Below are positions 31,466 through 37,328 of a stretch of DNA of 64,000 nt, piece by piece. The notes beneath the pieces are model-generated. The model made no database searches, was not told the origin of the DNA, and was given only the letters and a program-made list of their open reading frames with translations. The stretch's first letter is position 1. Each line of letters opens with the position of its first letter. A program made the position numbers and the translations under genes. Location: the NCBI RefSeq assembly GCF_054482525.1, contig NZ_CM137006.1; one strand, given 5' to 3'.

Positions 31466-31696
31466 TTAGATGATAAATGACAGCAGGAATGTGCCCGCCA
31501 GAGCGACGACTGAAGCGATAAATGTCGCTGTCGTATAGTATTTAAATGTTTCATTGAGCGTAGCGCCGCAATATTGCTTCGCCAGCCAGAAAAGCGAGTC
31601 CGTAACGATCGTGCAGCCAATTGCACCTGAACCGATAGCAATCGTAAAAATTTCCGGGCTGATGTCGGGATACAGCGCCAGCACAATGATCCATAT
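31466..31696 (-). pseudogene. dsdX: 3' remnant of dsdX (GntP-family D-serine permease), truncated at the csc island junction
   Basis: Only about 75 C-terminal codons of a permease-like frame remain, ending 18 bp before dsdA; the frame hits a stop upstream at about 31697, and no dsdC follows. Confidence 0.7.
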
Positions 31697-31926
31697 TTAT
31701 ATTTTCTTCTCCAGATTGGCGATGCCAGTTGGCATGTTTTACCTACTTGCCTACATGGTTACTCGTTGGCGAGAACAGAGGCGGAATTGGGTACAATTGT
31801 CCGGGAATTATTGTTATTTTTTATTGTATTGCCGTGTCGGGTTATAGGGCGTTGAGAATATCGTTGGATCTCGCCAGTGACGTCTGTTTCTGCTACAGTG
31901 CCCGTTTTACGGCAAACGGCTTGGGT

Positions 31927-32922
31927 ATGGCTTCATTAAAGGATGTCGCACGCCTGGCGGGAGTGTCGATGATGACAGTCTCCCGGGTGATGCATAATGC
32001 AGAATCTGTGCGTCCTGCAACGCGTGACCGCGTATTGCAGGCAATCCAGACCCTGAATTATGTTCCTGATCTTTCCGCCCGTAAGATGCGCGCTCAAGGA
32101 CGTAAGCCGTCGACTCTCGCCGTGCTGGCGCAGGACACTGCTACCACTCCTTTCTCTGTTGATATTCTGCTTGCCATTGAGCAAACCGCCAGCGAGTTCG
32201 GCTGGAATAGTTTTTTAATCAATATTTTTTCTGAAGATGACGCTGTCCGCGCGGCACGTCAGCTGCTTGCCCACCGTCCGGATGGCATTATCTATACTAC
32301 AATGGGGCTGCGACATATCACGCTGCCTGAGTCTCTGTATGGTGAAAATATTGTATTGGCGAACTGTGTGGCGGATGACCCAGCGTTACCCAGTTATATC
32401 CCTGATGATTACACTGCACAATATGAATCAACACAGCATTTGCTCGCGGCGGGCTATCGTCAACCGTTATGCTTCTGGCTACCGGAAAGTGCGTTGGCAA
32501 CAGGGTATCGTCGGCAGGGATTTGAGCAGGCCTGGCGTGATGCTGGACGAGATCTGGCTGAGGTGAAACAATTTCACATGGCAACAGGTGATGATCACTA
32601 CACCGATCTCGCAAGTTTACTCAATGACCACTTCAAATCTGGCAAACCAGATTTTGATGTTCTGATATGTGGTAACGATCGCGCAGCCTTTGTCGCTTAT
32701 CAGGTTCTCCTGGCGAAGGGGGTACGTATCCCGCAGGATGTCGCCGTAATGGGCTTTGATAATCTGGTTGGCGTCGGGCATCTGTTTTTACCGCCGCTGA
32801 CCACAATTCAGCTTCCACATGACATTATCGGGCGGGAAGCTGCATTGCATATTATTGAAGGTCGTGAAGGGGGAAGAGTGACGCGGATCCCTTGCCCGCT
32901 GTTGATCCGTTGTTCCACCTGA
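31927..32922 (+). CDS. cscR: LacI-family sucrose repressor
   Basis: 331 aa from MASLKDVARLAGVSMMTVSRV (HTH); track ORF extends 66 codons upstream. Confidence 0.9.
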   Translation: MASLKDVARLAGVSMMTVSRVMHNAESVRPATRDRVLQAIQTLNYVPDLSARKMRAQGRKPSTLAVLAQDTATTPFSVDILLAIEQTASEFGWNSFLINIFSEDDAVRAARQLLAHRPDGIIYTTMGLRHITLPESLYGENIVLANCVADDPALPSYIPDDYTAQYESTQHLLAAGYRQPLCFWLPESALATGYRRQGFEQAWRDAGRDLAEVKQFHMATGDDHYTDLASLLNDHFKSGKPDFDVLICGNDRAAFVAYQVLLAKGVRIPQDVAVMGFDNLVGVGHLFLPPLTTIQLPHDIIGREAALHIIEGREGGRVTRIPCPLLIRCST

Positions 32923-32929
32923 TATTATG

Positions 32930-35493: not shown

Positions 35494-35564
35494 TGAGAAT
35501 TAAACGGCGAAGTCGTTCTTATCTCTAAATAGGACGTGAATTTTTTAACGACAGGCAGGTAATT

Positions 35565-36812
35565 ATGGCACTGAATATTCCATTCAGAAATGCGTACTAT
35601 CGTTTGGCATCCAGTTACTCATTTCTCTTTTTTATTTCCTGGTCGCTGTGGTGGTCGTTATACGCTATTTGGCTGAAAGGACATCTAGGGTTGACAGGGA
35701 CGGAATTAGGTACACTTTATTCGGTCAACCAGTTTACCAGCATTCTATTTATGATGTTCTACGGCATCGTTCAGGATAAACTCGGTCTAAAGAAACCGCT
35801 CATCTGGTGTATGAGTTTCATCCTGGTCTTGACCGGACCGTTTATGATTTACGTTTATGAACCGTTACTGCAAAGCAATTTTTCTGTAGGTTTAATTCTG
35901 GGTGCGCTCTTTTTTGGCCTGGGTTATCTGGCGGGCTGCGGTTTGCTTGACAGCTTCACTGAAAAAATGGCGCGAAATTTTCATTTCGAATATGGAACAG
36001 CGCGCGCTTGGGGATCTTTTGGCTATGCTATTGGCGCGTTCTTTGCCGGTATATTTTTTAGTATCAGTCCCCATATCAACTTCTGGTTGGTCTCGCTATT
36101 TGGCGCTGTATTTATGATGATCAACATGCGTTTTAAAGATAAGGATCACCAGTGCATAGCGGCGGATGCGGGAGGAGTAAAAAAAGAGGATTTTATCGCA
36201 GTTTTCAAGGATCGAAACTTCTGGGTTTTTGTCATATTTATTGTGGGGACGTGGTCTTTCTATAACATTTTTGATCAACAACTCTTTCCTGTCTTTTATG
36301 CAGGTTTATTCGAATCACACGATGTAGGAACGCGCCTGTATGGTTATCTCAACTCATTCCAGGTGGTACTCGAAGCGCTGTGCATGGCGATTATTCCTTT
36401 CTTTGTGAATCGGGTAGGGCCAAAAAATGCATTACTTATCGGTGTTGTGATTATGGCGTTGCGTATCCTTTCCTGCGCGCTGTTCGTTAACCCCTGGATT
36501 ATTTCATTAGTGAAGCTGTTACATGCCATTGAGGTTCCACTTTGTGTCATATCCGTCTTCAAATACAGCGTGGCAAACTTTGATAAGCGCCTGTCGTCGA
36601 CGATCTTTCTGATTGGTTTTCAAATTGCCAGTTCGCTTGGGATTGTGCTGCTTTCAACGCCGACTGGGATACTCTTTGACCACGCAGGCTACCAGACAGT
36701 TTTCTTCGCAATTTCGGGTATTGTCTGCCTGATGTTGCTATTTGGCATTTTCTTCCTGAGTAAAAAACGCGAGCAAATAGTTATGGAAACGCCTGTACCT
36801 TCAGCAATATAG
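35565..36812 (+). CDS. cscB: Sucrose:H+ symporter (LacY-family MFS)
   Basis: 415 aa, 12-TM oligosaccharide:H+ symporter-like. Confidence 0.93.
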   Translation: MALNIPFRNAYYRLASSYSFLFFISWSLWWSLYAIWLKGHLGLTGTELGTLYSVNQFTSILFMMFYGIVQDKLGLKKPLIWCMSFILVLTGPFMIYVYEPLLQSNFSVGLILGALFFGLGYLAGCGLLDSFTEKMARNFHFEYGTARAWGSFGYAIGAFFAGIFFSISPHINFWLVSLFGAVFMMINMRFKDKDHQCIAADAGGVKKEDFIAVFKDRNFWVFVIFIVGTWSFYNIFDQQLFPVFYAGLFESHDVGTRLYGYLNSFQVVLEALCMAIIPFFVNRVGPKNALLIGVVIMALRILSCALFVNPWIISLVKLLHAIEVPLCVISVFKYSVANFDKRLSSTIFLIGFQIASSLGIVLLSTPTGILFDHAGYQTVFFAISGIVCLMLLFGIFFLSKKREQIVMETPVPSAI

Positions 36813-37253
36813 ACGTAAACTTTTTCCGGTTGTTGTCGATATCTCCATATCCCTCAACCGGAAAATAATAATACAAAAATGCTTAGCCCAACTAATAATC
36901 ACCTAATCCAAACGCCTCATTCATGTTCTGGTACAGTCGCTCAAATGTACTCCGGATACGCGGTTCGCTGATTTCCAGGACATTGTCGTCATTCAGTGAC
37001 CTGTCCCGAGTATCACGGGCCTGCGAATTCATCAAGGAATGCATTGCAGAGTGAAGTATCGAGTCACGCCATATTTCGCTATCAGGATTCTGTATGATGG
37101 TTACATCGCCCGGCCCAGGGCTGTTTAGTCATCAGCGCTTTCTGACAGTGCTGAGATTTCAACCTGTTGCAGTAAAAATGAGTAGATATAGGGCAAGTGT
37201 GCTGCCAAACCCATCTTTTACGGGGTGAAGGTAGATTTGGTTTGAAGGGTATC

Positions 37254-37328
37254 TGGTGTCCCCTGCAGGAATCGAACCTGCAATTAGCCCTTAGGAGGGG
37301 CTCGTTATATCCATTTAACTAAGAGGAC
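37254..37328 (-). tRNA. argW: tRNA-Arg (anticodon CCU)
   Basis: Reverse complement reads GTCCTCTTAGTTAAATGGATATAACGAGCCCCTCCTAAGGGCTAATTGCAGGTTCGATTCCTGCAGGGGACACCA (75 nt): cloverleaf with CCU anticodon, T-loop GGTTCGATTCC, encoded CCA. Confidence 0.95.

Follow-up and report, generated by a model that had tools for sequence, protein, structure and literature searches.

The 64-kb window of Escherichia coli DNA analysed here raises the question of what lies between dsdA and the tRNA gene argW, how it came to be there, and what it implies for the use of sucrose and D-serine. The locus is almost certainly the chromosomal csc regulon for non-PTS sucrose catabolism of E. coli, in the standard location and arrangement. 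It is well described: the argW-csc-dsd arrangement has been published (Archer 2011, PMC3032704; O'Boyle 2020, PMC7486766; Stephens 2024, PMC11251922) and is ordinary in the species, because about half of the sequenced E. coli carry the same one, with the left junction present in 2,687 of 5,426 complete genomes. A first-pass annotation of this DNA had named csc at argW-dsdA as a known strain-variable locus, in agreement with these reports and with this frequency. The present analysis adds a base-exact map and a corrected phenotype prediction; the biology is not new. ORF and tRNA calls placed the open reading frames and argW where the first-pass annotation had them, and the locus comprises the following features:

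30120-31448, minus strand: dsdA, D-serine ammonia-lyase, intact, 442 aa (TIGR02035)
31466-31683, minus strand: dsdX remnant, a pseudogene consisting of the stop, 71 codons and 2 nt, K-12 DsdX residues ~374-445
31684-31926, plus strand: first 243 bp of the non-K-12 segment, upstream of cscR (base-by-base K-12 comparison)
31927-32922, plus strand: cscR, LacI-family repressor of the csc regulon, 331 aa, intact (LacI-family matches)
32930-34363, minus strand: cscA, cytoplasmic GH32 invertase, 477 aa, intact (TIGR01322)
34364-34578: divergent cscA/cscKB control region, with two putative CscR operators and a CRP-like site
34579-35493, plus strand: cscK, fructokinase, 304 aa, intact (NF006957)
35565-36812, plus strand: cscB, sucrose:H+ symporter, 415 aa, intact (TIGR00882)
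36901-37128, minus strand: internal fragment of a DUF4942 gene, aa 76-151 of 281 (Pfam PF13708, E=1e-8)
37254-37328, minus strand: argW, tRNA-Arg(CCU) (ARAGORN; Rfam 63.4 bits)

Alignment to K-12 MG1655 and to E. coli W mapped the breakpoints to the base and showed W to be collinear with the window. In the base-by-base BLASTN comparison with MG1655, K-12 homology ends inside dsdX, at 31683/31684, and picks up again at 37254, the final base of argW (the tRNA 3' end), which sets the right junction at 37253/37254. The 5,570 bp in between (31684-37253) have no K-12 counterpart and form the only segment of more than 1 kb in the window for which this is the case. The first-pass annotation had rightly recognized a C-terminal dsdX remnant fused to unrelated DNA, but its figures of about 75 codons and a breakpoint near 31697 need revision: about 72 codons remain (71 plus 2 nt and the stop), and the break lies 13-14 bases further left. 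The corresponding 72-aa ORF (31466-31684) matches positions 374-445 of 445 in the DsdX profile NF007395, and RefSeq labels it as partial DsdX. The reported absence of dsdC was borne out as well. When the whole 64-kb window was searched by tblastn with K-12 DsdC, DsdX and IntS, only DsdX residues 374-445 were recovered, with no DsdC and no IntS; the intact dsdC and full-length dsdX that lie upstream of dsdA in a functional dsdCXA locus were looked for in this way and are not present. The dsdA gene is thus orphaned, its DsdC activator gene being absent from the window. DsdA itself scores 810.7 bits against a TIGR02035 cut-off of 368 and is identical to its K-12 and O157:H7 counterparts at 437 and 441 of 442 positions, respectively. 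According to PMC7486766, its promoter lies 115 bp ahead of the dsdA start, a region that the dsdX remnant still includes. Three chromosomes, those of PCN033, SCU-102 and 19KM1776, are identical to the window over 30000-38500, and at megablast sensitivity neither dsdC nor the 5' part of dsdX was found elsewhere on them. Over the full 64 kb, PCN033 differs from the window by 40 mismatches and one gap. At the other border, the argW att site is unoccupied. In an Rfam scan of 30000-38500 (E up to 1), argW was the only RNA identified, two further matches far below their gathering scores being dismissed as chance.

The placement of cscR, cscA, cscK and cscB between dsdA and argW, as proposed in the first-pass annotation, is upheld by family scores above the curated NCBIfam cut-offs and by the orthology of CscR to its W counterpart. 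CscA reaches 479.8 bits (cut-off 356.4; TIGR01322, GH32 hydrolase) and carries the catalytic motifs WMNDPNG at 36, FRDP at 159 and WEC at 214, while CscK reaches 507.7 bits (cut-off 450; NF006957, fructokinase) and CscB 594.5 bits (cut-off 220; TIGR00882, oligosaccharide MFS transporter, LacY-like). CscR is identical at 328 of 331 residues to the protein named 'Sucrose operon repressor [E. coli W]', and an orthologue identical at 329 of 331 residues carries the PGAP name CscR. Database matches to Csc proteins were found for the csc ORFs, the W proteins differing by 1-6 residues (CscR 3, CscA 6, CscK 1, CscB 3). CscB is wild-type at L51, C327, Q353 and L363, positions at which up-mutations have been catalogued (PMC3938415). 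The genetic elements that define the regulon are in place, from CscA, CscB, CscK and CscR to the control region and the position between argW and the truncated dsdX. The cscR promoter presumably lies within 31684-31926; a promoter scan of 31400-37400 returned no sigma-70 consensus promoters. Terminator-like matches in the same interval fell mostly within coding sequence and were set aside.

The spacer between cscA and cscK contains two copies of the 12-bp palindrome GTTAACGTTAAC, at 34398-34409 and 34462-34473, and the 13-mer TGTTAACGTTAAC occurs in exactly two copies in the whole window, both inside this spacer. A CRP-like site (TGCGA-N6-TCACA) is intact at 34443-34458. Judged by sequence, the GTTAACGTTAAC pair appears to be the two published 12-bp CscR operators, since two 12-bp inverted repeats, together with CRP sites, are ascribed to csc in passages of PMC11251922 and PMC3938415 that cite Jahreis 2002. 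Both operators are invariant among four strains (the window, W, O157:H7 and GMF065), and comparison of the control region with the other three reveals two SNPs private to the window, at 34429 and 34474, the latter, with C here against the common T, directly adjoining operator 2.

From the literature on csc, we infer the transport and enzyme activities of these proteins, their regulation and the resulting phenotypes. CscB would take up sucrose together with a proton, the GH32 invertase CscA would cleave it to glucose and fructose, and CscK would phosphorylate the fructose. The LacI-type CscR would mediate repression at the two 12-bp palindromes of the divergent cscA/cscKB promoter region, and activation would require cAMP-CRP. 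Derepression of the regulon has been reported to require more than 1% sucrose (PMC3938415). Since high sucrose is needed for induction with wild-type CscR and CscB, growth on sucrose is expected to be slow. [quoted passage not shown] No scr genes are found within the 64-kb window. With SCU-102 as a proxy, the predicted phenotype is slow, CscR-repressed growth on sucrose. The label 'sucrose-positive' given in the first-pass annotation overstates the phenotype. For D-serine, a dsdA gene left with neither activator nor transporter leads us to predict that the strain is unable to use this compound and is sensitive to it, as reported for EHEC with the same architecture, in which dsdC is lost, dsdA is silent and D-serine is toxic (PMC7486766).

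Both predictions have to be weighed against alternatives. The csc genes might be intact in sequence and silent in practice, leaving the strain sucrose-negative under ordinary test conditions. Indeed, intact csc genes do not guarantee growth, because 5 of the 29 csc+ scr- commensal isolates failed to grow on sucrose, four of them without a visible defect (PMC11251922); the high sucrose threshold for derepression, the merely 'very slow' growth conferred by the identical SCU-102 locus and the private SNP next to operator 2 point in the same direction. We nevertheless consider silence unlikely, given four full-length ORFs that lie within a few residues of those of the sucrose-utilising strain W, intact operators and CRP-like site, and slow growth, rather than none, in most of the isolates. 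It is more improbable still, and by a clear margin, that the strain continues to use D-serine, whether it has another dsdCXA copy outside this locus, like K1 strains, or expresses dsdA independently of DsdC. Some E. coli are reported to have two dsdCXA copies or csc plus dsd (title of Moritz & Welch 2006; Stephens 2024, PMC11251922), and EHEC dsdA was reactivated by deletions that move cscAp nearer (PMC7486766). Moreover, dsdA is intact, and its pN/pS of 0.02-0.13 among csc+ strains suggests continued constraint, although this figure comes from four strains and is confounded by recombination. However, DsdC is absent from the 64-kb window by tblastn, the three chromosomes identical over 30000-38500 yielded neither dsdC nor the 5' part of dsdX at megablast sensitivity, and EHEC of the same architecture has a silent dsdA and finds D-serine toxic. 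A D-serine-sensitive non-user thus remains our prediction. Even so, the orphan dsdA appears to be under purifying selection in csc+ lineages, which hints at a DsdC-independent use, for which read-through from the sucrose-induced cscA promoter, oriented toward dsdA, is a possible route.

The evidence on origin bears on a further alternative, namely that csc forms a tRNA-linked integrative island that is mobile at present, having arrived recently at argW and kept the ability to excise. In favour of this, several prophages use the 3' end of argW, which the segment adjoins, and the remains of a CP4-like island gene are found beside the segment. However, none of the hallmarks of a tRNA-linked island (integrase, direct repeat, divergent base composition) was found. 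There is no IntS match in the window, and RefSeq annotates only the four csc genes and the DUF4942 fragment in the segment, with no recombinase; a search for repeats of the argW 3' end (13-24 nt, up to 2 mismatches), which included the left junction, returned argW itself alone; and the GC content of the segment (0.480) is close to that of the window (0.487), only cscB being somewhat low at ~0.43. The left end lies within a truncated gene and not at an att site, and the same junction is shared by strains of phylogroups D, B1 and E at a divergence like that of dsdA: pS is 0.02-0.06 for the csc genes and 0.04-0.06 for the neighbouring dsdA, with a higher value of 0.10 for emrY. Full-length matches in plasmid collections were either Mb-sized records or a 365-kb record with a chromosomal dsdA flank, and four 'phage' records have csc at the record end, one of them also carrying the host dsdX remnant. 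We therefore see next to no chance that the segment is still mobile. The first-pass description of csc as horizontally acquired suits the history of the locus and its status as the sole non-K-12 segment of this size, but not the missing integrase, att repeat and GC deviation. Because these signs are absent and synonymous divergence resembles that of dsdA, csc has the appearance of an old haplotype, inherited or recombined, and not of a recent mobile island. A single ancestral rearrangement probably joined DNA upstream of cscR to dsdX at codon ~374, deleting dsdC and the first ~373 dsdX codons, and the junction has probably spread by vertical descent and homologous recombination in the flanks rather than by a mobile element. 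As to other carriers, the plasmid matches to the GH32 gene at ~73% identity represent other sucrose/raffinose hydrolases, and the four phage records were read as prophage plus host flank. No tandem repeat was detected in the yfdF homologue (TRF).

The sole unpublished point of the locus concerns the DNA between cscB and argW. The DUF4942 fragment shares 51% identity (tblastn, E=4e-16) with the terminal gene of an island next to setC in C43(DE3), whose gene order is CbtA-DUF5983-DUF957-DUF4942, and on these sequence grounds we read it as what is apparently left of a CP4-like integrative island. Its location with respect to cscB points to z3622 of EDL933 as its probable identity; the RefSeq ORF overlapping it has 60 aa (36892-37074). 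In 2,623 genomes, coverage of the 441-bp flank reaches 80% or more, a number near that of the csc+ genomes. DUF4942 always accompanies csc, which could mean that both arrived with a CP4-like island. It is tempting, if on balance doubtful, to speculate that csc was brought to the argW-dsd region on such an island, or fused to its distal end; a DsdC-independent use of the orphan dsdA is likewise doubtful on balance. Under such an origin of csc, later deletions would have cost the locus its integrase and att sites along with dsdC and the greater part of dsdX, and the csc/dsd polymorphism seen in half of the species would go back to a single rearrangement.

The csc locus is useful as a strain marker, predicting slow sucrose use that depends on high sucrose concentrations as well as D-serine non-use and sensitivity; the latter trait has been connected with the preference of pathogenic E. 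coli for the intestine or the urinary tract as a niche. The locus also assigns the strain to the csc-carrying lineages, which comprise phylogroups D, E and B1. Sampled csc-negative genomes match the window almost only up to 31683, whereas in W and O157:H7 the left junction is identical save for two SNPs within the first 40 bases of the non-K-12 flank.

Compared with known systems, the window shares its flanks with K-12 MG1655 (emrKY-dsdA on one side, argW-yfdC-mlaA on the other, 97-98% identity), but in place of its 5,570-bp csc segment K-12 has 12,583 bp (2466384-2478966) made up of the 10.2-kb CPS-53 prophage, dsdC and full-length dsdX. The csc regulon of E. coli W and EC3132 has the same gene order, orientations and dsdX junction as the window, and its operators are invariant. 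W (ATCC 9637) is collinear over 27000-37268, with 97.84% DNA identity across the junction and dsdX truncated at the same base; the two control-region SNPs set the window apart from it, and homology ends at 37268, at the att core copy, where W has a lambdoid prophage (TorI side) at argW beside the csc flank. O157:H7 (EDL933 z3622-z3626, dsdX', dsdA) has the same junction and genes, with proteins identical at 302 of 304 to 473 of 477 residues, as well as the DUF4942 fragment; unlike in the window, argW and the csc flank are separated there by an IntS/P22-like prophage remnant. Prophages thus occupy argW in K-12, W, O157:H7 and WP7-S17-ESBL-01, whereas the site is empty here. The PTS-dependent scr system of Klebsiella and E. 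coli B2 likewise serves sucrose use through a GH32 hydrolase, a fructokinase and a LacI-type repressor. However, scr works with a porin and a PTS enzyme II, and its substrate for hydrolysis is sucrose-6-phosphate, whereas csc relies on an H+ symporter and hydrolyses free sucrose, and growth on sucrose is fast with scr and slow with csc (PMC11251922).

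BLASTN against K-12 MG1655 returned two collinear blocks, one running up to window position 31683 (K-12 2478967, inside dsdX) and the other starting at 37254 (K-12 2466383, the final argW base). A nucleotide-level comparison showed that K-12 identity ends after 31683 and restarts at 37254, so that the non-K-12 segment spans 31684-37253 (5,570 bp). At the same place, K-12 carries 12,583 bp comprising the CPS-53 prophage, dsdC and 1,120 nt from the 5' end of dsdX, whereas the window contains the csc sucrose-catabolism genes; the intervening K-12 DNA has no match anywhere in the window. 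tblastn searches of the 64 kb with K-12 DsdC, DsdX and IntS yielded DsdX 374-445 as the sole match and none for DsdC or IntS. The first-pass annotation, which had read csc as replacing the K-12 arrangement between dsdA and argW, with dsdC absent and dsdX truncated, is thus confirmed in its observation and supported in its interpretation, with small corrections: the junction, put at about 31697, lies at 31683, and the dsdX remnant comprises 71 codons, 2 nt and the stop codon rather than about 75 codons.

The locus is flanked by emrKY on one side and yfdC-mlaA on the other and contains the following features:

30120-31448, minus strand: dsdA, 442 aa, intact, NCBIfam score above the curated cut-off
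31466-31684, minus strand: dsdX remnant ORF, 72 codons, matching only the last 72 DsdX profile positions
31927-32922, plus strand: LacI-family regulator (cscR)
32930-34363, minus strand: GH32 hydrolase (cscA), NCBIfam score above the curated cut-off
34579-35493, plus strand: fructokinase (cscK), NCBIfam score above the curated cut-off
35565-36812, plus strand: oligosaccharide MFS transporter (cscB), NCBIfam score above the curated cut-off
36901-37128, minus strand: short DUF4942 ORF, an internal fragment in the right-hand flank of csc
37254-37328, minus strand: tRNA-Arg(CCU), argW

The csc ORFs indeed match Csc proteins, given the scores of the enzyme, kinase and transporter and the proximity to their E. 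coli W counterparts, from which CscR, CscA, CscK and CscB differ by 3, 6, 1 and 3 residues, respectively. In a newer RefSeq annotation, these genes carry the same four names in a genome that shares 98.9% identity with the window over 30000-38500. CscA keeps the GH32 motifs WMNDPNG, FRDP and WEC, and CscB is wild-type at the positions of known up-mutations (PMC3938415).

Within the 215-bp cscA-cscK spacer, the palindrome GTTAACGTTAAC occurs twice without mismatch (34398-34409 and 34462-34473), and a predicted CRP site with a good match, TGCGA-N6-TCACA, lies at 34443-34458; exact window matches to the 13-mer TGTTAACGTTAAC are confined to this spacer. These features are published: they are the pair of 12-bp inverted repeats and the cAMP-CRP sites of Jahreis 2002, as cited in PMC11251922 and PMC3938415. 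Both predicted CscR operators are invariant across W, O157:H7 and GMF065. Two control-region SNPs, at 34429 and 34474, are private to the window haplotype; the latter directly adjoins operator 2 and is C in the window and T in these three strains.

The csc segment, which the first-pass annotation had called the clearest horizontally acquired module, is the only window stretch of more than 1 kb absent from K-12. A reading as a mobile island, however, is contradicted by several lines of evidence: no integrase was found in the window and no att repeat was detected, GC content is 0.480 (window, 0.487), and pS among the window, W, O157:H7 and GMF065 is 0.02-0.06 for csc, compared with 0.04-0.06 for dsdA and a higher value of 0.10 for emrY. 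Moreover, csc was reported to be present throughout phylogroups D and E and in nearly all of B1 (Stephens 2024, PMC11251922), and the window's closest genomes, PCN033 and SCU-102 (ST973, phylogroup D), agree with this distribution. Together, these observations argue that the csc locus is an old haplotype, not a recent acquisition, probably passed on by inheritance or by homologous recombination in its flanks.

Among 5,426 complete E. coli genomes, at least 80% query coverage was reached in 2,642 for the 8.5 kb of 30000-38500, in 2,687 for a 300-bp query with the left junction at its centre and in 1,466 for the cscB flank running uninterrupted into argW. In almost every csc-negative genome sampled, the match to the junction query stops at position 150 (window 31683), as a single ancestral junction would give. 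Direct inspection showed a prophage separating argW from the csc flank in O157:H7, W and WP7-S17-ESBL-01, and the same appears to hold for most csc-positive genomes in which the two are not contiguous. The argW att site (37254-37400, including the argW-yfdC spacer) is empty in the window. In K-12 it is occupied by CPS-53, and in W, O157:H7 and WP7-S17-ESBL-01 the occupants are lambdoid or P22-like prophages. Separately, window 37302-37400 is found as a duplication in 74 records of Stx2a-converting phages.

The DUF4942 ORF corresponds to aa 76-151 of a 281-aa protein, the gene with which CP4-like islands end. It shares 51% identity (E=4e-16) with the last gene of such an island beside setC in C43(DE3), ordered CbtA-DUF5983-DUF957-DUF4942. 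For the 441-bp flank holding it, coverage reaches at least 80% in 2,623 genomes, near the number of csc-positive genomes, and the fragment is probably a scar left by an island that had integrated at argW earlier. From its position beside cscB, it is probably z3622 of EDL933. In EHEC, the z3622 promoter can drive dsdA following deletions (PMC7486766).

As to phenotype, the csc genes are intact, but the predicted sucrose-positive character should be read as weak, slow utilisation, since none of the csc-positive isolates lacking the PTS-dependent scr regulon grew fast on sucrose (23/29 'slow' or 'very slow', 5/29 no growth; Stephens 2024, PMC11251922), SCU-102, whose sequence over 30000-38500 is 100% identical to that of the window, was scored 'very slow' (PMC11251922), and csc derepression takes more than 1% sucrose (PMC3938415). 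In EHEC of the same architecture, the dsd system, lacking DsdC, does not function and D-serine is toxic (O'Boyle 2020, PMC7486766), and the ability to use D-serine has been lost in E. coli W (Archer 2011, PMC3032704). On three chromosomes identical to the window over 30000-38500, dsdC and the dsdX 5' part were not found elsewhere at megablast sensitivity. The orphan dsdA appears to be under purifying selection, with a pN/pS of 0.02-0.13 across the four csc-positive strains, similar to cscA although confounded by recombination. Its W allele is nucleotide-identical to that of K-12, although W is csc-positive and K-12 dsd-positive, a pattern that fits continued constraint plus recombination across the csc/dsd boundary.

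Elsewhere in the window, the yfc chaperone-usher fimbrial operon (48107-53739) shows 72.7% identity to K-12, versus 94-98% in surrounding genes, and its flanks (47479-48106 and 53740-54286) lack any K-12 match; this looks like a whole-operon allelic replacement. A yfdF homologue (39563-40795, minus strand), a hypothetical protein of very low GC (0.32-0.37), has 410 aa versus 352 aa in K-12. Its K-12 alignment breaks at 40378-40426, with K-12 2463238-2463380 matched on both sides, which suggests that sequence has been duplicated or inserted within it; no tandem repeat was detected there by TRF. fadJ (44650-46794, plus strand) is uninterrupted, encoding 714 aa, but carries a frameshift in the PCN033 annotation; with 40 mismatches and one gap relative to PCN033 over 64 kb, the window stems from a close relative rather than from that assembly.

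All main elements of the csc locus have been published; in the literature examined, we did not find the DUF4942 vestige interpreted as CP4-like, nor the apparent purifying selection on orphan dsdA. Window 27000-37268 is collinear with E. coli W at 97.84%, with two gap openings only and unbroken through the dsdX'/csc junction. In both W and O157:H7, this junction is the same as in the window except for two SNPs in the non-K-12 flank, whereas K-12 dsdX departs at precisely this point.
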